From a virus (taxonomy: Duplodnaviria; Heunggongvirae; Uroviricota; Caudoviricetes), in IMG/VR virus record IMGVR_UViG_2737471860_000005: a stretch of 10,662 bases of DNA; one strand, written 5' to 3'. Numbering within the stretch: the first letter of the stretch is position 1; each line of letters opens with the position of its first letter. The notes beneath the pieces are model-generated. The model was given only the letters and a program-made list of their open reading frames with translations. It searched no databases and had not been told where the DNA came from. A program made the position numbers and the translations under genes. Positions 1 through 10,657 of the stretch are shown here, piece by piece.

Positions 1-53
1 GGCCATAACAGTATCTACGCAGTACCTGTAATATATTGAATCTGCAGGACTTT

Positions 54-87
54 GTAGGCCAGATAAGGCGTTAATGCCGCATCAGGC
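54..87. repeat. REP (repetitive extragenic palindromic) element in the 3' flank of ybiU
   Basis: GTAGGCCAGATAAGGCGTTAATGCCGCATCAGGC closely matches the enterobacterial REP consensus as I recall it (GTAGGCCGGATAAGGCGTT..CGCCGCATCCGGC), with imperfect dyad symmetry; it lies in an intergenic position downstream of a gene end. Confidence 0.6.
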
Positions 88-169
88 ATTAAGAAAGCGC
101 ACTTGTCAGCAATCTGAGTAACGTCGAATCGATTTTCTTAATCCCACATCAATTCACTTCCATTAACTC

Positions 170-1435
170 TCAAACATCCATGCCCAACGCTCGCTTACCG
201 TGAATGTTGAGGTCGGCAAGCGTAAAGCGTCCTTCCCAGTTTGTTTCATAGTCCTCGCGCGGGAAGTCGCCCGGCGATGCGCCTTTTTCCAGTGCGGCCT
301 TCACCTTGTGCGCGTAGGCAAGATTTTTCTCGCACATCGGTGCCGCAGGAATGTACATCACGTTGCCCCAGCCCTGTTGATTTTCAACGGGGGCAACGGA
401 ATGGATGACGTCGCAGTGCCACCAGACGGAGTCTCCGGCTTCGAGTTTTGGAATGCTGGTTAACGCCTCAATCAACAGTGGATGCCATTGCTCTGATACC
501 GGCAATACTCTTCCGGGCGCTACGCCGCACAGTTCATCCTCCGGCACATCATCAAGCAGCGGACGTAACAGTACGTACGCCATGGCTTCAGGAATGGGCA
601 CGACGTGCAGCAGCCCCTGACCAGGCAGCATATCAGAGAGCGCTGTCCAGCCCTGGAATGTCCGAAACACGGAACATTTGGTGGTGTTGTCCACCGTGTA
701 CTCTTCAACTTCCGTACGATGTGCCGCATGCCAGGGATCATATTGCGCCAGATTGCCATTAAAGACGTTGGCGAAAACGCGCTGATACGCTGGAAGCAGC
801 CAGCGTTCCAGCGCCCCGGAGTCGGTATGCGCTCCAAGACCTTTGGAGGTCGTTCCGGGCGGACGGCGGCGGATACGGTCAGGGTAGATGACGCTCACAT
901 CCGGGTTAAACCATTGCTTTCCATCACTTTCAAATGTCCACAGACGATTGAGAAACGACTGCGCATTCGCCATTTCTTCACTCTGGCGGGCCTGCATTTG
1001 CGCCTGCGACCAGTAGATGGGGTAAATCTCGGGACGTGAAGCGCTGAGCGTCCCGAAGAAATTATCGCCGGGGCCTTTGTAGACCTCGTCAAAGCGGTTG
1101 CGGTCCAGATAGTCCAGCATCGACTGATCCCAGCCTAGCGCTTGTTCGCGGGGGAAATGGCCTTTTATCACCGCACAACCGCGACGTTTAATCTGTTCGC
1201 GCTGATCTGCAGTAACATGACCTGCTTTGATATCGGCATAAGACAGCACCGGCCAGACGGCATCGCCCTGTGCTTTGAGTGCGTTGATTTCAGCCACTCG
1301 CGTGGCAATGTCATCGCTTAGCTGATTAAAGATCTGCTGGACGTCGCCAAGCTGCGCCCGCAGCGCGTGCTTCATCTGACGGATAGCTGCTTTGTGATCG
1401 GCAGGCAATGTGTCGCTGGTAAAAGTAGAAGCCAT
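170..1435 (-). CDS. ybiU: YbiU, DUF1479-family protein of unknown function
   Basis: Long uninterrupted minus-strand ORF; the translation (MASTFTSDTLPADHKAAIRQ...) is recognised as E. coli YbiU. The ORF track starts at GTG 1439-1441, but ATG at 1433-1435 preceded by GAGGTGG is the more likely start, so I give 1435. Confidence 0.88.
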   Translation of the reverse strand: MASTFTSDTLPADHKAAIRQMKHALRAQLGDVQQIFNQLSDDIATRVAEINALKAQGDAVWPVLSYADIKAGHVTADQREQIKRRGCAVIKGHFPREQALGWDQSMLDYLDRNRFDEVYKGPGDNFFGTLSASRPEIYPIYWSQAQMQARQSEEMANAQSFLNRLWTFESDGKQWFNPDVSVIYPDRIRRRPPGTTSKGLGAHTDSGALERWLLPAYQRVFANVFNGNLAQYDPWHAAHRTEVEEYTVDNTTKCSVFRTFQGWTALSDMLPGQGLLHVVPIPEAMAYVLLRPLLDDVPEDELCGVAPGRVLPVSEQWHPLLIEALTSIPKLEAGDSVWWHCDVIHSVAPVENQQGWGNVMYIPAAPMCEKNLAYAHKVKAALEKGASPGDFPREDYETNWEGRFTLADLNIHGKRALGMDV

Positions 1436-1485
1436 AACCACCTCTCATTAACTTTCATTCGAAACCATTCTGATTTGCATGTGAC

Positions 1486-1514
1486 AATATAAGTTATAAA
1501 TAAGTTAATGCAAG
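1486..1514 (-). promoter_or_regulatory. Candidate sigma70 promoter for ybiU
   Basis: On the minus strand: TTGCAT (1514-1509), 17-bp spacer, TATATT (1491-1486), about 45 nt upstream of the ybiU ATG. Hexamer match only, no other support. Confidence 0.25.
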
Positions 1515-1542
1515 TTTAATGATTTGATGTGATGTACAGGAT

Positions 1543-1578
1543 GTAAAAAGAAGGGAAAACCGGAGCGCACGGCTCCGG
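1543..1578 (-). terminator. Rho-independent terminator downstream of ybiV
   Basis: Perfect 7-bp inverted repeat CCGGAGC/GCTCCGG (1560-1566 and 1572-1578) with a 5-nt loop; on the minus strand it is followed directly by a U-rich run (UUUUCCCUUCUUUUU, 1559-1543), 9 nt after the ybiV stop codon. Confidence 0.6.
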
Positions 1579-1586
1579 TAGAGAGG

Positions 1587-2402
1587 TCAGCTGTTAAAAG
1601 GGGATGTGTTATCCAGCACCGCCTGAATCACATTCAGCGCGCCTTCATGATTATTATCATCGGTAGCGTAACGGGCGATTTGTTTAATGTTTTCCGCAGC
1701 ATTGCCCATCGCAAAGGAATAACGCGCCATTTTCAGCATCTCCGCATCGTTACCGCTGTCGCCAATCGCTACCACATTTTGCGGTGACAGATCCCAGCGT
1801 TTCAGTAACCGCGAAATACCGTTTGCTTTATGTAGACCGGGAATAATCAGGTCGATAAAGCCAAAACCACTGGTGACGGGTTTCATAATGCCATCGAGCG
1901 CTATGTGCAGTTTGTCGATCACTAACGGGATTTGTTCATCTGGCAGGTTGAGCGAAAACTTGAACAGTACGTCGTCAATCTCCTGATAATCTTTTACAGC
2001 TTTCAGGCGATGGTAGTGTTTTGCCATCAGTGCGACAAATGCTTCGGGGGCATTTTCGCTGACATATGCACTTTGCAGACCGCAGGCGACAAAATTGAGT
2101 TGCTTATCTTTTAGCAACTCGCCAATAACAATCCGCGATTCATGTCGGGTCAGTTCGCCGTGGAACAGTTGCTTGCCATGTTCGTAAACCAGTGCGCCGT
2201 TTTCCGCGACAAAAGAGATCTCATCCTTTAGCTCAGGAAAGAACGAAATAAGCTGGTAATACTGATTACCGCTGGCGACAACGAACTCAATGCCGCGCTT
2301 TTTCAGTTCCTGATATTGCGCCATAAAACGTGGTTGGTTGTACGTTTTGGCGTCGTTAAGAAAAGTACCGTCCATGTCTGTGACGATAACTTTTACGCTC
2401 AT
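1587..2402 (-). CDS. ybiV: HAD-superfamily (Cof-type) sugar phosphatase YbiV
   Basis: 271-aa ORF with the N-terminal HAD motif DMDGT ([11 protein letters not shown]) and a C-terminal GDSGND motif; recognised as E. coli YbiV. AGGAG lies 7 nt upstream of the ATG. Confidence 0.88.
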
Positions 2403-2516
2403 AGGTGTGCTCCTGGCTCGAAAATGAAACCGTAACAGTGTAATAACAATGTGACGCAGAGCACAAATTATATTTCGAATGAAAGTAAGGATGAAATTGA
2501 TGATGTGAATGATTTA

Positions 2517-2539
2517 GCCCGGCGACGCCGCAGCCGGGC
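2517..2539 (-). terminator. Hairpin downstream of ybiW, possible weak terminator
   Basis: 7-bp inverted repeat GCCCGGC/GCCGGGC with a 9-nt loop, 9 nt after the ybiW stop. The following minus-strand sequence is only modestly U-rich, so terminator function is uncertain. Confidence 0.3.
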
Positions 2540-2547
2540 CGAAGAGA

Positions 2548-4980
2548 TTACAGCATATGTTCAGTACGAGCGATGATATCGTCCTGAGCGTCTGGAGAGA
2601 GCGCGGTGAAGAAGGCGGAATAACCCGCGACACGCACTACCAGATCGCGGTACTGATCCGGATGTTTTTTCGCCTCCAGCAGCGTTTCGCGGGAAACGAT
2701 GTTGTACTGAATATGCCAGCCTTTATGCACCTCGAAGAAGGTGCGCAGCAGGATCATCAGCTTCTGCTTGTCAGATTCGTTCTCCAGCGTTGCCGGATTC
2801 AGTTTCTGGTTGAGCAACACGCCGCCGAGAATCGCTGCCGTAGGCAGTTTACCCACCGAGCCAATGACCGCAGTAGGGCCGAGATGGTCAGTACCAGAGG
2901 CCGGACTAGCGCCTTCTGCCAGCGGGGTGTGGGCTTTACGCCCGTCCGGCGTTGCCATAGTTTGCGCGCCAAACGGTACGTTAGCGGAGATAGATGACGT
3001 ACCCGCGTAATAGTTGCCGCCAACCGGACCACGACCGTAGCGCGGATTATGGTACTGTTTCAGTTCGTCGATATAGGTCTGATAAGCGCGAGCCAGCAGC
3101 GTATCGACAGTATCATCGTCGTTGCCGTACTTCGGCGCACCGTTAATCAGCCGCTGACGCAGTTGCTCATGAGTCAGGCCATCGAAGTCATCCGCCAGTG
3201 CGGCAGCCAGCTGTTGCTGACCAATCGCGCCCTGTTCAAATACCAGTTTCTTCACTGCCGCCAGGCTGTTGCCGAGGTTGGCAATGCCAACCTGCAGGCC
3301 AGAAACCCAGTCATATTTCGCGCCGCCTTGCTTGATACTTTTCGCTCGCTCAATACAGTCATCCACCAGCGCCGAGCAGAGAATATCGTGCACGTTCTCT
3401 TCCAGCATGGTGTCGACGACATATTCGATTTCGATTGATTTACGCGTGTAATAACGGATTTGCGTATCCCACGCGTCCATTACTTCATCGAAATTGTTAA
3501 AGTTGCCTGCCGACAACGCTTTTTCTTGTGGCAGGAACACTTTGCCGCTGGTGGCATCACGCCCGCCTTCCAGCGCCGCCAGCATCACGCGGGCGAAGTT
3601 GATAAAGCTCATGCCGGTACAGCGATAGCCCCATTTGCCACCGACGGCGGTTTCGATACAACCAATCGCTGCGTAGTCGTAAGCGTCCTGCGGTTCAATA
3701 CCGAGTTTAATAAATTCCGGGATCACGATTTCGTCGTTGTTGAACGCCGGCATCCCGAAGCCGCAACGGATCACCTGTACGCAGGCGTCGAGGAAATCAT
3801 TACTCATTCCTGCATGGTAACGCACGCTGAGGTTAGGCTGAGTGGAACGCAGGCGACCGCAGGATTCGAGGATCGCGTAAGAGAGGGGATTCACTGCATC
3901 CATTGGTTGACCATCAACCAGATTTTGTCCGCCAATGGTAACGTTCTGATACAGCGGACTTCCCGCAGAGGCTTTTGAGTGTGAGCCGGAGCGGATCTTG
4001 TTCACTTCCAGCAGTTTCAGCCAGCAGCTATGTAGCATCTCGATGGCGTGTTCGCGATCCAGCGTCTGGTTGAGTTCAACGTCGCGGCGATAGTACGGGT
4101 AGAGATACTGGTCCATACGACCAAACGATACCGAGTGACCGTTAGATTCGATCTGCAAAATCAATTGGATGAAGTAACACAGTTGCAGCGCCTGCCAGAA
4201 AGTCTGCGGCGGCTGGTGGGCGATAAGATCGCAGTTTTCTGCCATCGTCAGCAGTTCATCGCGACGGCTTTCGCGAGTTTCGGTAGCAGCCATTTCACGC
4301 GCCAGGGCAGCGAAACGTTCAATGTGTTCACTGACTGCCACCAGCACGATATCAATCGCTTTCAGGAATTGTTCGCCATGTAAATCTTCCAGCACCGTCA
4401 GATTGATGCGCGAGCGACGTTCCGCTACTTTCTCACGCAGACCATCAAGACCTTTTTCCAGCAGCAGCGGGAAATTCACCGCCAGGTGCGCATCGCCGGA
4501 GGTCATATTGCCTTCCGCTTTAATGATTCCGGTCGCCAGCAGACCTTTTTGCTCATCGGTAAACATGCCGTAGCAGCGATCCTGTACGGTCTGACCGCGC
4601 CACCACGGGCACACTTCATGCAGAACGCGTTTGTTCTCTTCGCTCACCGCAAAGCCAGCACCGGGACGATCTGCCAGATCATCAATCTCTTTTTCGATCC
4701 ACGAGACAGTATATTCCGGGAAGATCGGCGCGGCGCGAACTTCGCTTGCCTGGTTGCCAATGATCAACTCATCGTGTTTGATCCAGATGGTGCGATTCGC
4801 CAGGTGATGCGCCAGTGCCAGCGCGCGACGTACCGGGATCGGCTTATCGAGATGTTGTTGATACATCTCGGTATAGTGCTGCGCGCGCTCGGTACAGACT
4901 GGCGGTTTCACAATATGCACCAGCGCATTTTTGTGCGCTTTAATGCGGTCGCTGAGCGTGTCCAGTTTCAGTGTGGTCAT
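2548..4980 (-). CDS. ybiW: Glycyl-radical enzyme of the pyruvate formate-lyase family (YbiW/PflF)
   Basis: 810-aa ORF with a C-terminal glycyl-radical signature (VVRVAGYSAFF) about 30 residues from the end; the size and motif fit PFL-family glycyl-radical enzymes. Its ATG (4978-4980) sits 6 nt after the ybiY stop with GAGGA inside the end of ybiY, suggesting translational coupling. Confidence 0.88.
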   Translation of the reverse strand: MTTLKLDTLSDRIKAHKNALVHIVKPPVCTERAQHYTEMYQQHLDKPIPVRRALALAHHLANRTIWIKHDELIIGNQASEVRAAPIFPEYTVSWIEKEIDDLADRPGAGFAVSEENKRVLHEVCPWWRGQTVQDRCYGMFTDEQKGLLATGIIKAEGNMTSGDAHLAVNFPLLLEKGLDGLREKVAERRSRINLTVLEDLHGEQFLKAIDIVLVAVSEHIERFAALAREMAATETRESRRDELLTMAENCDLIAHQPPQTFWQALQLCYFIQLILQIESNGHSVSFGRMDQYLYPYYRRDVELNQTLDREHAIEMLHSCWLKLLEVNKIRSGSHSKASAGSPLYQNVTIGGQNLVDGQPMDAVNPLSYAILESCGRLRSTQPNLSVRYHAGMSNDFLDACVQVIRCGFGMPAFNNDEIVIPEFIKLGIEPQDAYDYAAIGCIETAVGGKWGYRCTGMSFINFARVMLAALEGGRDATSGKVFLPQEKALSAGNFNNFDEVMDAWDTQIRYYTRKSIEIEYVVDTMLEENVHDILCSALVDDCIERAKSIKQGGAKYDWVSGLQVGIANLGNSLAAVKKLVFEQGAIGQQQLAAALADDFDGLTHEQLRQRLINGAPKYGNDDDTVDTLLARAYQTYIDELKQYHNPRYGRGPVGGNYYAGTSSISANVPFGAQTMATPDGRKAHTPLAEGASPASGTDHLGPTAVIGSVGKLPTAAILGGVLLNQKLNPATLENESDKQKLMILLRTFFEVHKGWHIQYNIVSRETLLEAKKHPDQYRDLVVRVAGYSAFFTALSPDAQDDIIARTEHML

Positions 4981-4985
4981 GGTTG

Positions 4986-5340
4986 TTATCCTCGTAAGGT
5001 CGCGGTTAACCCTTTCTGGCAGGCATACTGCTGGGCAAAGTCGAGCAGTTCTGGCGCATCAAGCGGTTTTTCCGGGGCGTCATAGGGCAGATTAAGTAAG
5101 TGATATTTGTTGATGCCCAGCGTGTGGTAGGGCAGAAAATGAATTTCGCCAACGTGCAGCTCGTCGGCGGCAAAATCGGTAATGGCTTTTACAGAGGTTT
5201 CGTCGGCATTAAAGCCCTGAATCAGCGGCACGCGGATAATGATTTTTTTGCCCGCTGCGGCGAGTTTTTTCAGGTTATCCAGCACCCTGGCGGCGTTACC
5301 GTCGGTCCACTGTTTAAACGGCGCGTCGGCAACGTGTTTT
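4986..5340 (-). pseudogene. ybiY: 3' fragment of the glycyl-radical-enzyme activating enzyme gene ybiY (pflE), truncated by prophage insertion
   Basis: The reading frame ending at stop 4986-4988 (...[28 protein letters not shown]...) runs upstream without an ATG to about 5340, where composition switches abruptly to AT-rich phage-end sequence and a stop appears at 5349-5351. The N-terminal part, which should carry the radical-SAM CxxxCxxC motif, is absent from this window. The activase identity rests on gene order next to ybiW and on memory. Confidence 0.75.
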
Positions 5341-5359
5341 AAATATGACTAGGTAATTT

Positions 5360-5491
5360 ATTCAAGATAACCGGGAAAAGATTAAAAAAGACGGGATTTG
5401 ATGGGATTCAATAAGTTAGGTACTGAACGCATTCAAGATAAAACGTACCGAAAACGCTCAACGCCTCGGGAACGATAAAACATTCAAGATA
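5360..5491 (+). repeat. attL transposase-binding-site repeats (L1-L3-like)
   Basis: Three direct copies of the 10-bp core ATTCAAGATA at 5360-5369, 5431-5440 and 5482-5491. The middle copy continues AAAACGTACCGAAAAC, resembling the MuA end-binding consensus that ends in CGAAAA. Confidence 0.6.
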
Positions 5492-5542
5492 GGCGCGCCG
5501 TGTATTTTAAGCCTTTTAAGACATTTCAAAAACATCAGTATG

Positions 5543-5610
5543 GCCTTTAAAAAAGAATTTTAAAGGCACCATGAAGGCAGGTCAATGAAGTTAACCTGCC
5601 TTCGTTTTTA
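5543..5610. terminator. Tandem hairpins at the 3' end of the repressor gene; intrinsic-terminator-like on the plus strand
   Basis: Hairpin A: 10-bp inverted repeat GCCTTTAAAA/TTTTAAAGGC (5543-5552 and 5558-5567), 5-nt loop. Hairpin B: 9-bp stem GAAGGCAGG/CCTGCCTTC (5573-5581 and 5595-5603), 13-nt loop that contains the c stop codon, followed on the plus strand by GTTTTTA (5604-5610). Confidence 0.4.
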
Positions 5611-6106
5611 CACTCTCTGAGAGAATACTAGCTTCAATCTCCGCCAAAATCTCTCTGACTTGCTCGTCGGGCATATCGACCAGCATCAACGCAGCTAGGC
5701 GTTTACGGCCCTCCAGTTGCAGCAATTCTTGATTTTCCTTATCTAACAAGCGTAGCACGGTCTCAACACCTTTCCTTGCGAGCATGTTGGTTAGGGCCTC
5801 TCGTTCCTCATTGGTAAGAAACGAGAGCATTTCAATTAGCTGATCGCCTTGGCTTAAATTACTTTGTAATTCTTGTGTTTTTGGTGAATTTCCGTTACCT
5901 GTTTTTAACCATTCAAGACTAACGCCTTCACTTTCTGCAATGCGTACCAATATGCTTTCACGAGGCTCTGGTGTGTTTCCCTTTTTAAAATAGCTTTGTA
6001 ACGTGTTGATATTTATTCCCCAAGCTCTGGCGGCAGCACTTCTTGATGGATATCGCCTAATAAGATAGGCCATGCGCTCTACGATAGGTTCTTTTGCCTG
6101 CTCCAT
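5591..6106 (-). CDS. c: Prophage repressor (Mu c-like C-terminal region, HTH N-terminal domain)
   Basis: 171-aa ORF transcribed divergently from ner, with GGAGG 7 nt upstream of the ATG. The N-terminal region looks like a helix-turn-helix (SRSAAARAWGININTLQSY). The C-terminal segment LAALMLVDMPDEQVREILAEIE resembles the Mu repressor C-terminal region as I recall it. Position and orientation match Mu c. Confidence 0.7.
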   Translation of the reverse strand: MEQAKEPIVERMAYLIRRYPSRSAAARAWGININTLQSYFKKGNTPEPRESILVRIAESEGVSLEWLKTGNGNSPKTQELQSNLSQGDQLIEMLSFLTNEEREALTNMLARKGVETVLRLLDKENQELLQLEGRKRLAALMLVDMPDEQVREILAEIEASILSESVKTKAG

Positions 6107-6297
6107 AAAAGTACCTCCAGGTATTTTTCTGCTTAAAGGTTCTTTTCTATCTATCTAATTGAATAGAAATGAAATCTTAAAAAACCAATAAAAATACAAA
6201 AAATACCTTGAATAGGTACTTTTTGTGATCTACGATTTTATTCACTCGGATATCCGCGCGAATATCCGAGCGGGTAATTTTGTAGGGTAAAGGAAAG
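6107..6297. promoter_or_regulatory. Divergent early control region (Pc/Pe promoters and operators; possible enhancer)
   Basis: 191-bp AT-rich intergenic region between divergent c and ner. It contains two copies of TTGAATAG (6159-6166 and 6208-6215), the partial palindrome AAAATACC-N7-GGTACTTTT (6200-6224), A-tracts, and a possible rightward promoter TTGAAT (6208-6213), 17-bp spacer, TACGAT (6231-6236). It lies about 770-960 bp from the left end, comparable to the Mu operator/enhancer position. Confidence 0.5.
6245..6270. promoter_or_regulatory. Palindromic operator-like site upstream of ner
   Basis: CTCGGATAT-CCGCGCGA-ATATCCGAG: 9-bp perfect inverted arms. The left arm contains the self-complementary 10-mer CGGATATCCG (6247-6256), and the half-site ATATCCG recurs 12 bp later (6262-6268). 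It sits 28-52 bp upstream of the ner ATG, just downstream of the putative early promoter -10. Confidence 0.45.
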
Positions 6298-6549
6298 ATG
6301 AGACAAAGAGAAGATAGTGGCCGCGATTGGCCTTCGCTGATGATTCAGCAGGCACTCAAAGATAATGGGTGGTCTTCCTTTCGGGAGCTTTCACTCCATG
6401 CAGGTTATGCTCAGGATTCACTGAAAGCGGTAGTTCGTACACCAAACAAAAAATACGAACGCGTTATTTCTGACGCTATAGGTGTCCCGCCAGAAGTCAT
6501 CTGGCCCAGCCGATACCGTAATGATGGAATAATCAGGAAGGCGTCGTGA
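6298..6549 (+). CDS. ner: Ner-like DNA-binding early regulator
   Basis: 83-aa ORF with AAGGAAAG upstream. It contains RDW near the N-terminus and PEVIWPSRY near the C-terminus, both matching phage Mu Ner and the Ner/Nlp family as I recall them. It is the first gene of the rightward early operon. Confidence 0.8.
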   Translation: MRQREDSGRDWPSLMIQQALKDNGWSSFRELSLHAGYAQDSLKAVVRTPNKKYERVISDAIGVPPEVIWPSRYRNDGIIRKAS

Positions 6550-6550
6550 T

Positions 6551-8647
6551 ATGCAGTCGTACGTTACCGTAAATGACCTGCTCGGTGTTCCTGGAATGCC
6601 AGCCACAGCAAAAGGCATCCGACAGGCGTTACAGCGTTTTTCTCGTGGTCTTGGTGACATGAGCCGCCGTAGGGAAGGCTCAAAAGCCATTGAGTACCAC
6701 ATTGATTGCCTACCGGAAATAACACAAAAGGCACTACGTGAACGTTATGTGGAACAACTAGTAGCTACGGAGAACAACGTTTCTGAAGTAAAAGCTGTTA
6801 CTAGGAAGACACGTAATCCCGATGCTGTTCAGGCGATCGAAGCATATCGCGGTTCTCCGCAACTGATGGAAGAACGCCTGAATGCACTTACCGAAAACCA
6901 GCGTCGGGTATCTGAAGCAAGGGCAGCGCTGGTGGTGGAAGTGCTGAAGCTGGAAAGCGCCGGTAACATCGGGCGACTGAAAGCCATTAACTTTCTTGTT
7001 GAAAAGGCTCGTAAAGACGAGCTGCCAGAGCGACTGCAACAGGCCGCGATTAACGCCAATGCAAAACGTGGCGCTAATCGCACTATCAGCCGTGATCCGC
7101 TTTACCAGTGGGTACTGAAATACAACCAGTCGCGGAATGCCGCAGAACGACTGCTGTTACTGGCACCAGGTAAACGTGACGAAATAAAACCGGAAGAAAT
7201 TAGCTGGCTACCTGAATTTCTGGCGCAGTATCGCCAGGTGAACGGCAGACCTATGTCTGAAGCCTACGAGGATTTTGTCGCGGAATGGCAGCGTCGCCAT
7301 GCAGACGAACCGTACATGCTGGAGGTGATGCCCTCTTACGATGTGGTTCGTTATGCCATGAAGAAATTGCCGGAAGTGGTGAAACAAAAAGGACGCGTTA
7401 CCGGCAGTGAATACCGTCAGCTTGAAGGATTCACCCGTCGCAACTGGACCGCTATGCCGGTGAATTATGTCTGGATTGGTGACGGTCACGGTATGAAGCT
7501 GAAATGTGCGCATCCGATCCACGGGCGTCCATTCTCACCAGAAGTCACGTTTGTGATCGATGGTGGAACACGGTTTGTTGTTGGCTGGAGTCTTGACCTT
7601 GCCGAGAACGTGTTCGCCGTTGCCGGTGCAATACAGCACGGCATTCGTAACCACGGAAAACCGTTCCTGTATTACTCGGATAACGGTTCCGGTGAAACGG
7701 CAGATATGCTGGATAAAGAGATTGTCGGGATTCTGCCCCGTCTGGGCATTAACCACCCCACCGGTATTGCGGGAAATCCACAGGGACGCGGCATTATTGA
7801 ACGCCTGAACCGGACGCTGCCGATGCGTATAGCCAGGAAGTATCGCACCTATTTTGGCAAGGGTGCTGACCGGGAATCATTGCGTGTGCTCAATCGCGAT
7901 CTGCGTTCAGCATTTAATGCCCTGCAACAGGACAAACCGCTGAATGCTCGCCAGAAATCTGCAATGCGTGAGCTGCCATCATGGACAGAACTTATCGAGG
8001 CTATTCGTGAAGGTGTGGAATGGTACAACAACCGCCCACATTCTGAGCTGCCGATGAAACCTGACGGACGGCATTACAGCCCGGCAGAATTCAGAAAAAA
8101 ACGCCTGGCAGAAGAAGACACCGAAATTGAGTGGCTGAGTGATCTTGAGCTGCGCGACATGTTCCGCCCGATGGTGGAACGGCCTGTAAGACGGTGCGAA
8201 ATTCAGTGGCTGAACAATATTTACTACGCGCCGGAATTGCGTGACGAACACGGCCGCAAAGTTCTTATCAGTTATGACATTCATGACGCAGAGCGAATTA
8301 CGGTACGCCGTAAAGACGGCAGCTTTATTTGTGAGGCGATATGGAACGGCAATAAACGCGCAGCCTTTCCTGTCACGGCTGAATATCACAAACAACAGCA
8401 GCGTATTAAAGGAATGCGCAAACGTGCTGAGGAAAAAATTCGTGATGCTGAAGATGAAGGTATCCAGATTCTGGAACACAAACAGTCTGAACCATGTCTG
8501 GATAATGTTTATCGCCCGGTTGGTAATACGGTAACCGTCCAGCAACAGGATTATGAAGAGGATTACGACGAAGATTATAAACGCGATTTCTGGCTGGGTT
8601 TGCAGAAACTTGCAGCCATACAGGAACAGGATGATCCGCTGGCCTGA
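6551..8647 (+). CDS. A: Mu A-like DDE transposase
   Basis: 698-aa ORF starting 1 nt after the ner stop (TGAtATG). The N-terminal motif GSKAIEYHIDCLP resembles the MuA/Mu-repressor winged-helix motif (GVKGGKAIEY). Candidate catalytic residues are D311 (WIGDGH), D377 (YYSDNGS) and E417 (IIERLNRTL), followed by WYNNRPHSEL, typical of a retroviral-integrase-type core. Confidence 0.88.
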   Translation: MQSYVTVNDLLGVPGMPATAKGIRQALQRFSRGLGDMSRRREGSKAIEYHIDCLPEITQKALRERYVEQLVATENNVSEVKAVTRKTRNPDAVQAIEAYRGSPQLMEERLNALTENQRRVSEARAALVVEVLKLESAGNIGRLKAINFLVEKARKDELPERLQQAAINANAKRGANRTISRDPLYQWVLKYNQSRNAAERLLLLAPGKRDEIKPEEISWLPEFLAQYRQVNGRPMSEAYEDFVAEWQRRHADEPYMLEVMPSYDVVRYAMKKLPEVVKQKGRVTGSEYRQLEGFTRRNWTAMPVNYVWIGDGHGMKLKCAHPIHGRPFSPEVTFVIDGGTRFVVGWSLDLAENVFAVAGAIQHGIRNHGKPFLYYSDNGSGETADMLDKEIVGILPRLGINHPTGIAGNPQGRGIIERLNRTLPMRIARKYRTYFGKGADRESLRVLNRDLRSAFNALQQDKPLNARQKSAMRELPSWTELIEAIREGVEWYNNRPHSELPMKPDGRHYSPAEFRKKRLAEEDTEIEWLSDLELRDMFRPMVERPVRRCEIQWLNNIYYAPELRDEHGRKVLISYDIHDAERITVRRKDGSFICEAIWNGNKRAAFPVTAEYHKQQQRIKGMRKRAEEKIRDAEDEGIQILEHKQSEPCLDNVYRPVGNTVTVQQQDYEEDYDEDYKRDFWLGLQKLAAIQEQDDPLA

Positions 8648-8655
8648 ATAAAAAA

Positions 8656-8677
8656 ACAGTCCGCGGAAACGGACTGT
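8656..8677 (+). other. Stem-loop in the A-B intergenic region
   Basis: 8-bp perfect inverted repeat ACAGTCCG/CGGACTGT with a 6-nt loop, 9 nt after the A stop and 44 nt before the B ATG. It has no U-tract, so it is not a classical terminator; it could be an RNA stability or processing element or a partial attenuator. Confidence 0.35.
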
Positions 8678-8720
8678 TAAACAAAGGAAACAAAGCTGAT
8701 TTGAATAAACGGAGAATAAT

Positions 8721-9650
8721 ATGACCGATATTAATGATGTTTTCAATACGATTAGCTCACTGATTACTGACAGCGTAAAAACTCAGAGCGTTATTGCTAA
8801 AGAGGCAGGCGTGTCAGAGGCCACACTCTCGGAACTCCGCAAAGGTCGTTACAAAGGCGATACCGAAGGGATGCATGACAAATTACTGATGTGGTATCAG
8901 GCCTGGCAGAAAAGCCAGGAATTACCAGGCGCACCGCAACTTGTGGAAACACAAACCCTGCGTGATTTGCGTGAACTGTTCCAGACGGTGCGTGTTATGG
9001 GGTGTATCAGCGTTCTGGTTGGTGTGCCGGGGGTAGGAAAAACCGTTGCAGCCCGTGAATACAGTAATCGGGTATCTAATACCTGGATGGTGACCCTTTC
9101 CCCTGCACACTCAACGGTGACTGAATGTCTGCTGGAACTGGCAGACGCGCTGGGAATTGATAATCCGCAAAGGAATAAAGGTGCACTGACCCGTGCCATT
9201 CGCAAAAAACTGAATGGTACACGCGGTCTGGTTATTGTGGATGAAGCTGACCACCTGAGCATTGACGGGCTGGAACAATTACGTGCCATTCAGGATGCCA
9301 CCGGAGTCGGGATGGTATTGATTGGTAACCCCAGCCAGTTAGCCAAAGCCACACATCGGGGAACGGATGACCTTGCACGTTTGTTCAGTCGTTTCGCCAT
9401 GACAAAGCAACTACGTAAAGCCAAAAAGGCTGACGTGGTGGCAATTGCAAAAGCCTGGGGCATTGAGGGCGAAGATGAATTATCACTCATGCAGAGTATC
9501 GCGGAAAAACCAGGTGCATTACGTGTATTAACTCATACGTTGAATCAGGCGTGGCTGGCAGCCAGCGGGAAAGGCGTTCCTCTGTCCAAAGACTACATTA
9601 AAGCGGCTTTTAAAGAGGTTTACAGCAACCCGAAATTACTGAACTGGTAA
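8721..9650 (+). CDS. B: Mu B-like AAA+ ATPase (target DNA activator)
   Basis: 309-aa ORF with Walker A GVPGVGKT (residues 101-108) and Walker B LVIVDEAD (about 170-177), plus an N-terminal HTH-like segment (SVIAKEAGVSEATLSELRKG). It lies immediately downstream of the transposase, as in Mu. Confidence 0.85.
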   Translation: MTDINDVFNTISSLITDSVKTQSVIAKEAGVSEATLSELRKGRYKGDTEGMHDKLLMWYQAWQKSQELPGAPQLVETQTLRDLRELFQTVRVMGCISVLVGVPGVGKTVAAREYSNRVSNTWMVTLSPAHSTVTECLLELADALGIDNPQRNKGALTRAIRKKLNGTRGLVIVDEADHLSIDGLEQLRAIQDATGVGMVLIGNPSQLAKATHRGTDDLARLFSRFAMTKQLRKAKKADVVAIAKAWGIEGEDELSLMQSIAEKPGALRVLTHTLNQAWLAASGKGVPLSKDYIKAAFKEVYSNPKLLNW

Positions 9651-9661
9651 TAGGGTGATAA

Positions 9662-9892
9662 ATGATGATGTCACGAAATATAAAAATGGCAACGGATGCG
9701 CAGCACTGGTTACAGGCGCGCGGAAGTCACGTAAATGAATCATATATCGGCGTGGCACGCCCGATTCTTGAAATCACTTATCCACCTGTTGAACTGGTAA
9801 AAAACGCGGTCAGGATTATGGAGCATAAATCAGGTATTGCCCGTTCTGTATGGACGACACGTCTTAATGGTTGCCAGATTATCTGGAGATAA
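9662..9892 (+). CDS. Small early protein of unknown function (occupies the Mu kil position)
   Basis: 76-aa ORF beginning 12 nt after the B stop. Three consecutive ATGs (9662, 9665, 9668) follow GGGTGA, so the true start is probably 9665 or 9668. No motif recognised; assignment is by synteny only. Confidence 0.5.
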
Positions 9893-9894
9893 CG

Positions 9895-10125
9895 ATGTGT
9901 ATTAAAGCTGAAAAATATATTGAATGGGTTAAACACTGTCAGCACCACAGAGTACCGTTGACGACATATAAATGCCCTGGATGTGGTGAACAGATTATGA
10001 CGCAATGCTCACCAGAAAAGGAAATTCGGGATTCTCTGACATGTTGTCCTTGGTGTAGTGCAGTTTTCTTTAAACAGGTACAAGGTGCGAAGGTAAAAGC
10101 CAGCGTAGTTATTCAGAATCAATAA
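9895..10125 (+). CDS. Small zinc-ribbon protein (CxxC...CxxC) of unknown function
   Basis: The ORF track gives a TTG-forced start at 9871, but ATG 9895-9897 has GGAG 6 nt upstream, overlapping the previous stop. The 76-aa product carries CPGC (residues 26-29) and CCPWC (49-53) plus further Cys/His residues (HCQHH), a typical small zinc-ribbon arrangement. Confidence 0.55.
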   Translation: MCIKAEKYIEWVKHCQHHRVPLTTYKCPGCGEQIMTQCSPEKEIRDSLTCCPWCSAVFFKQVQGAKVKASVVIQNQ

Positions 10126-10136
10126 GGAGAAGCAAA

Positions 10137-10400
10137 ATGGCAAAAGTAATTATTGAAATTAAAAATACAGTATCTGGAATTAAAGGACGGAATTTGTGCA
10201 CCAGCATTGCGGTGGACGGTAGTGCGGAACTGGACGGTGATGAGGGTACACTCGCTGGCATGGTGGCGTTACTGGTGCTTAATAAAAGCCAGAAAATAAT
10301 TAATGAGTCAGCTCATGAAGCTATTGAGATTTTGAAAAACGATGGTGTCATCACCGGTGGCCGTGTCACTGAAATGGCTGTTGAAAAAACATGCCACTGA
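10137..10400 (+). CDS. Hypothetical small early protein
   Basis: 87-aa ORF with a strong AGGAG 7 nt upstream of the ATG, starting 11 nt after the previous stop; same strand and tight packing with its neighbours. No motif recognised. Confidence 0.5.
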   Translation: MAKVIIEIKNTVSGIKGRNLCTSIAVDGSAELDGDEGTLAGMVALLVLNKSQKIINESAHEAIEILKNDGVITGGRVTEMAVEKTCH

Positions 10401-10414
10401 AAGGAACGCTGACA

Positions 10415-10657
10415 ATGAACGTCAAAATCCGAAATGAAATTCAGGCATTAATCCGAATTCAGGAACGCAATAACAACGGTGGTGAATTACGCGAGTTTAT
10501 TTGTGCGCGTGAAGTTGATGGTTATGGTGAAAAAACTTACCTGATAGCTTTTGACCATTACAGCATCTGTGCGCGTTATTGCGGTGAAAGCATTTCCAGC
10601 GCCATTGCGTTTGGCGGTGCGTTCAACGTGGATTTATGGGAATACGGGCTTTGTTGA
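10415..10657 (+). CDS. Hypothetical small early protein
   Basis: The ORF reaches stop 10655-10657. I prefer the start at ATG 10415 (AGGA 9 nt upstream, product MNVKIRNEIQ..., 80 aa). The track's alternative, ATG 10391, overlaps the previous gene by 10 bp and lacks a clear ribosome-binding site. Contains several Cys residues; no motif recognised. Confidence 0.45.
   Translation: MNVKIRNEIQALIRIQERNNNGGELREFICAREVDGYGEKTYLIAFDHYSICARYCGESISSAIAFGGAFNVDLWEYGLC

Follow-up and report, generated by a model that had tools for sequence, protein, structure and literature searches.

Four small ORFs behind the B gene of a Mu-like Escherichia coli prophage match the kil-E7 block of phage Mu, with the last gene apparently cut by an insertion sequence

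The DNA immediately downstream of the transposition genes of a Mu-like prophage raises the question of whether the small open reading frames (ORFs) packed there encode undescribed functions or are early genes that are already known from a related phage. We addressed it in a window (the whole stretch of DNA that was analysed, 10,662 nucleotides in length) whose source is a whole short-read contig, Logan SRR2239602_40, from a de Bruijn-graph assembly. The following features lie upstream of the ORFs in question.

1-5344: host DNA that matches several E. coli chromosomes at 100% identity and carries ybiU, ybiV, ybiW and a 3' portion of ybiY
5591-6106, minus strand: repressor gene
6298-6549: ner
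6551-8647: A transposase, 698 aa
8721-9650, plus strand: B-type transposition ATPase, 309 aa, 44% identical to MuB

The left end of the prophage sits at about position 5345 inside ybiY, a gene for a glycyl-radical enzyme activating protein, of which a 99-codon 3' fragment remains (window 4986-5345). Precomputed Pfam matches of B include AAA_22 and Phage-MuB_C. A and B are separated by 73 bp, within which lies a hairpin with a perfect 10-bp stem (8655-8678). It reads AACAGTCCGTTTCCGCGGACTGTT on the minus strand and is followed there by a T run, and the terminator scan picked it up on this strand alone.

Downstream of B, four ORFs are followed by a short non-Mu sequence at the right edge of the window.

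9662-9892, plus strand: ORF1, assigned to kil (Mu gp5), 76 aa if counted from the earliest of its three ATG codons, Shine-Dalgarno motif GGGTGA at about 9653-9658
9895-10125, plus strand: ORF2, homologue of gp6/E5, 76 aa, a small Cys-rich zinc ribbon
10137-10400, plus strand: ORF3, assigned to gp7/E6 (gnarl2), 87 aa, homologue of an O-antigen-altering accessory gene
10415-10646, plus strand: ORF4, 5' part (codons 1-77) of gp8/E7, the intact Mu gene having 139 codons
10647-10662, plus strand: left terminal inverted repeat of an IS903-type (IS5-family) element, supplying the TGA stop of ORF4 at 10655-10657

An earlier note, made from the sequence letters, had described the ORFs as co-directional, tightly packed, each with its own ribosome-binding site and richer in AT than their surroundings, and this description was borne out. 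All four are on the plus strand, in the same direction as A and B, and make 97.3% of positions 9662-10657 coding, with gaps of 2, 11 and 14 bp between them and with Shine-Dalgarno-like motifs GGGTGA, GGAGA, AAGGAGA and AAAGGAA in front of ORF1 to ORF4, respectively; across the 2-bp kil-gp6 gap, the GGAGA motif of gp6 falls within the 3' end of kil. The GC content of the cluster is 43.1%, compared with 50.9% for A, 49.5% for B and 52.3% for the host genes. When the genes were compared with those of phage Mu, the dN/dS ratios were 0.10, 0.09, 0.14 and 0.12 for ORF1 to ORF4, and 36 of the 53 differences within the four genes fell on third codon positions of the plus-strand frames. Ratios of about 0.1 together with this third-position bias indicate that ORF1 to ORF4 are constrained plus-strand coding genes, beyond what chance would give. 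A promoter and terminator scan of the cluster gave no plus-strand signal above background, and an Rfam search of the prophage part of the window returned no match.

The origin of the cluster became apparent when a blastn search of the window against 50,697 phage records recovered phage Mu itself, with the following match.

9660-10646, plus strand: mosaic module from kil to mid-gp8, 94.3% identical in DNA and without gaps to Mu 4307-5293

This is the sole blastn match between the window and the left 9.7 kb of Mu, and the corresponding Mu interval is annotated as kil, E5 (gp6), E6 (gp7) and E7 (gp8). Matches to the same span come from 14 phage records and from 49 genomes of E. coli. The placement of the ORFs in the position of the Mu semi-essential early region, as had been proposed before, was confirmed by this match: the cluster shares gene order, spacing and post-B position with that region (kil Mup05, E5 Mup06, E6 Mup07, E7 Mup08; NC_000929 4315-5481), and its proteins are 93-98% identical to those of Mu, with 5 residue differences in Kil, 4 in gp6, 2 in gp7 and 4 in the gp8 fragment. 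Unlike Mu, the window has gp8 cut after codon 77 by the IS903-type element, and its A, B, ner and repressor genes belong to another type that is only distantly related. With high confidence, we take the cluster to consist of near-unchanged Mu kil, gp6 and gp7/gnarl2 plus an IS-cut gp8, carried by a Mu-like prophage, an account that comes from comparison of sequences.

The assignment of ORF1 is supported at several levels. The protein is identical to Mu Kil (NP_050609) at 69 of 74 residues, matches PHROG 2743 over residues 2-76 (E 1e-41), and ORF1 of this exact contig has a precomputed Pfam match to PF26843 (Kil_protein). Translation could start at ATG 9662, 9665 or 9668, the starts annotated in Mu corresponding to 9665 or 9668. 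ORF1 is the first gene past the stop codon of B (9650), and Kil likewise follows B in 32 of 32 related loci. By homology, ORF1 is assigned as Mu Kil itself, and it is for the Mu protein that killing and rounding have been published. According to a passage of PMC3961180 that cites Waggoner et al. 1989, expression of Mu kil makes E. coli spherical, which indicates a block of cell elongation. Mu Kil shares its name with lambda Kil and Rac KilR, inhibitors of FtsZ or of division, and like them is a small prophage early protein toxic to host morphogenesis. However, the same passage describes Mu Kil as being without similarity to lambda or Rac kil, and the cells that it produces as spherical, not filamentous. 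A sequence search of the PDB with Kil returned nothing below E 0.8. The RefSeq and PHROGs label for Mu Kil, "protein for bacterial septation inhibition", conflicts with the spherical-cell description, which is the sole experimental account that was found; the label looks to have been transferred by name. A scan of the genome contigs for Kil gave a single match, which was spurious.

ORF3 is the gene for which the comparison with Mu brings the most recent functional information. Its product and NP_050611.1 of Mu are equal in length and identical at 85 of 87 residues (98%), R21C and S74G being the two substitutions relative to Mu, and it matches PHROG 10252 with an E value of 4e-56. NP_050611.1 (Mup07) is the exact protein that was tested as orf63 and named gnarl2 (PMC12373910 supplement; bioRxiv 10.1101/2023.04.06.535777), the naming dating to 2023-2025 (Silas et al., Nat Commun 2025; PMC12373910). 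Expression of gnarl2 shifted the O-antigen bands down in ECOR1 and ECOR22, and enhanced infection by T5 10^5 to 10^6 fold, with wild E. coli being sensitised (PMC12373910). This O-antigen phenotype is that of the Mu protein, of which ORF3 would encode a near-identical allele. Homologues of gp7 form 33 clusters, and all those with a source name come from E. coli, Salmonella or Shigella. A PDB sequence search with gp7 gave nothing below E 0.8.

ORF2 is likewise close to its Mu counterpart, with 72 of 76 residues identical to Mu gp6 and a match to PHROG 3786 at E 3.5e-39, and the Pfam family PF26833 (Phage_Mu_gp6) is precomputed both on ORF2 and on all 7 clusters of homologues. The cysteine pattern CPxC … CCPWC is kept in ORF2; C27, C50, C51 and C54 are invariant, and one cluster has Y in place of C30. 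An AF2 model of gp6 (pLDDT 91) consists of an N-terminal helix and a five-stranded Cys-rich sheet, and this zinc ribbon presumably binds a host or phage macromolecule. Foldseek comparison of the model with the PDB gave no match below E 0.8, while matches in BFVD (TM up to 0.82) were confined to uncharacterised proteins of Pseudomonas, Salmonella and Serratia phages. The family is tiny, with 7 clusters among 5.8 billion proteins, and a literature search for a function of Mu gp6/E5 found nothing.

These properties of gp6 bear on the possibility that the cluster is an undescribed host-takeover or anti-defence island composed of four novel small proteins outside described families. Such an island would be in keeping with gp6 and gp8 being without assigned function and belonging to tiny families, with a gp6 fold that resembles only uncharacterised phage proteins, and with the variation of the gp6 and gp7 positions among relatives. 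However, all four proteins are 93-98% identical to the products of Mu genes that were sequenced and named decades ago; phenotypes have been published for two of them (Kil and E6/Gnarl2), and Pfam families exist for two. The idea is refuted for ORF1 and ORF3 by their identity to Kil and Gnarl2, and for the cluster as a whole we consider it quite improbable. The statement of the earlier note that none of the ORFs could be assigned to a described family was likewise overturned by the matches to PHROG 2743, 3786, 10252 and 3690, to PF26843 and PF26833, and to NP_050611.1. Our Pfam and NCBIfam scans, in which the Pfam copy was older than PF26843 and PF26833, gave no match for ORF1, ORF3 and ORF4, and zinc-ribbon matches below threshold for ORF2. 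The view of the cluster as the likeliest site of an undescribed function in the window does not hold either, the genes being the known early genes of Mu, two of them with published phenotypes. Homology to Mu early proteins extends to all four products, but a phenotype has been described for Kil and E6/Gnarl2 only. By its sequence, then, the cluster is already known, as the Mu kil-E5-E6-E7 block at 94% identity with its last gene broken by an IS. It carries little weight as a discovery, being made up of Mu's own early genes, one of which was functionally characterised in 2023-2025; the use of the analysis is that a false lead to an undescribed function is removed and that the fourth ORF is revealed as IS-truncated, and gp6 and gp8 present themselves as targets for studies of host takeover by Mu.

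The fourth ORF requires separate treatment. As called, ORF4 spans 10415-10657 and encodes 80 aa, of which 73 of the first 77 are identical to residues 1-77 of Mu gp8; its match to PHROG 3690 (E 2e-49) covers positions 1-78 of 139 and is not one of full-length homology. Similarity to Mu is lost after codon 77, and the frame ends 11 nt further on, the last three sense codons and the stop (10647-10657) lying inside the IS end, and the continuation of intact Mu gp8 past codon 77 reads …GAATACGTGATGGAT…. The source contig runs 10 bases past the window, so that its non-Mu tail of 26 nt can be read as GGCTTTGTTGAATAAATCGAACTTTT (L003 10233-10258). This tail was found at no fewer than 27,363 sites in at least 5000 plasmids, and all 26 of its nucleotides agree with those at the left end of a 1057-bp element in a reference copy (L004) that is bounded by perfect 18-bp inverted repeats and encodes a transposase of the IS5 family (NF033579, E 3e-105). 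The tools themselves give "IS5 family" only, and we take the 18-bp inverted repeat to denote IS903. The identity of the contig end with the left end of the element is what relates it to the IS903/IS903B group of the IS5 family; unlike a full element of this group, only 16 nt of it are present in the window and 26 nt in the contig, and the transposase is that of the reference copy. Because Mu homology stops at the first base of the IS repeat, gp8 would be interrupted by the IS and the TGA at 10655-10657 would be IS sequence. The contig stops there because the IS is repeated. The far junction of the IS would consist of a 9-bp duplication followed by …GTGATGGATCGTGAA…, which lies beyond the end of the contig. 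As judged from this junction, ORF4 is an IS-truncated 139-codon gp8 and no intact small gene. Of the four small ORFs reported earlier, all are present, but the last one is the truncated form of a longer gene and takes its stop from inside the IS.

Two other readings of ORF4 have to be weighed against truncation. If ORF4 were a natural, short and intact 80-aa allele of gp8 that owes nothing to an IS, its start, Shine-Dalgarno motif and stop would all be expected in the window, where they are indeed found, and the databases do contain gp8-like proteins of 77-103 aa. By contrast, the departure of ORF4 from every relative begins exactly at 10647, with 71 of 71 Mu-like matches (57 in E. coli and 14 in phage records) ending at exactly 10646; the 26 nt past the junction are an exact IS903-type terminal repeat with at least 27,363 plasmid sites; and the C-terminal 62 codons of gp8 directly follow the first 77 in 31 of 31 related loci that extend that far. 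Moreover, P0017, P0020, P0003, P0007 and the entries labelled partial are partial, frameshifted or fused, in a comparison outside of which stand the short gp8-like entries P0023 and P0032-P0035. A short natural allele is hence exceedingly improbable. Alternatively, the junction could be an artefact of short-read assembly, in which gp8 is really intact and has been falsely joined at a repeat. Such a suspicion is invited by a contig that was built from a de Bruijn graph and terminates 26 nt inside a multicopy repeat, as well as by the presence of a single junction in the data, the second junction and the target duplication being beyond the contig. However, a 26-nt run into the IS needs read k-mers that span both gp8 codon 77 and the IS end, the break falls exactly at the first base of the inverted repeat as a true insertion predicts, and contig ends inside repeats are normal. 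We regard a false join as very improbable and retain truncation of gp8 by the IS.

The gp8 protein itself is a near-orphan, with 24 clusters among 5.8 billion proteins, and an exhaustive phmmer search of 1.84 billion representatives gave 11 matches, of which P0037 (33% identity, E 5e-4) is the one plausible distant relative. The AF2 model of full-length gp8 has a pLDDT of 49.7 and thus no confident fold, and a literature search for a function of Mu gp8/E7 found nothing. Among the database entries for gp8 (P0003, P0007, P0020 and P0024), several are frameshifted or fused, as in the case of a 231-aa gp7-gp8 fusion, and gp8 seems to be repeatedly damaged in prophages or in assemblies.

Taken together with what has been published for Mu, the layout suggests how the cluster may act. 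In Mu, the semi-essential region shares a long early transcript with A and B, and its deletion restores host viability after infection by a replication-defective phage (PMC3325207). The prophage in the window would be a transposable, Mu-like one that has inserted into ybiY of E. coli, and the cluster would open its semi-essential early region, distal to the promoter. By analogy with Mu, lifting of the repressor would lead to cotranscription of kil to gp8 with ner, A and B on a long early transcript, and each gene would be translated from its own Shine-Dalgarno site. Kil, a small host-toxic protein, would then stop rod growth and lead to spherical cells and death, as demonstrated for Mu. Gnarl2 would act as a small non-enzymatic effector by which the host O-antigen is shortened or altered, as demonstrated for the Mu protein, and this change probably cuts re-adsorption of progeny or superinfection. 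For both proteins we infer that the window alleles are equivalent to those of Mu. Finally, the IS903-type insertion after codon 77 of gp8, with its IS-derived stop, probably exerts a polar effect on gp9, gam and the early genes further downstream. The expectation that the region continues beyond the window agrees with the C-terminal part of gp8, gp9 and Gam being seen in relatives.

How a block so similar to Mu came to lie behind transposition genes that are not those of Mu can be approached from its neighbours. The A protein of the window is 24% identical to MuA and B is 44% identical to MuB, and no DNA similarity to Mu was found for A, B, ner and the repressor gene (5345-9650); B, the direct upstream neighbour, lies outside the Mu-identical module and is without blastn similarity to Mu DNA. 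Because A and B are this far from those of Mu, the kil-gp8 module would be a mosaic insert. Among relatives, the kil-gp8 block was found behind two types of A and at least three types of B. By these comparisons, Mu-like prophages with very different transposition genes exchange the block horizontally as a unit. The mosaic junction is sharp (9650-9660), the identity to Mu (94%) starting 10 bases past the stop codon of B. An engineered mini-Mu with a Tn903 kanamycin cassette, an origin prompted by the IS903-type end, was rejected in view of the module's identity to Mu, which is no more than 94%, and was also ruled out by the A, B and repressor genes not being those of Mu.

To see which genes of the block are constant, 32 IMG/VR loci anchored on Kil (L006-L037) were compared, 31 of which extend far enough for gp8, gp9 and Gam. 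Kil is present in all 32, and every one of the 31 that are long enough carries full-length gp8, gp9 and Gam. By contrast, gp6 occurs at 91-95% identity, as a diverged variant (63-76%), or is absent (7 loci), and the gp7 position holds the 87-aa Gnarl2 type to which ORF3 belongs or one of two other allelic types of 89 aa ("FNNT…" and "FTWLESS…"). Examples of the variable Kil-gp8 interval are 4498-4767 of L006, 4498-4767 of L009 and 985-1197 of L022. The earlier picture of a variable compartment thus applies to the gp6 and gp7 positions, but not to Kil, gp8, gp9 and Gam, which form a constant frame around these two variable positions. At the gp7 position, all three types start with MAKVI(I/F)E(I/F), have His as their last residue and are linked by hhalign (probability 83%, E 1e-5, 30% identity over 66 columns); from these features they resemble divergent alleles within a single family. 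Such variability is in keeping with an accessory gene as the gnarl2 paper understands the term. It is conceivable, although we think it rather unlikely, that the gp7 locus is hypervariable, with at least three allelic types, each tuned to a different surface-polysaccharide pathway or defence, and that gp6 or the N-terminal fragment of gp8 acts against the host or its defences in a way not yet described. In three of the loci without gp6 (L018, L022 and L036), an unrelated 70-aa ORF (MIVINIHDNLG…) fills the gp6 position.
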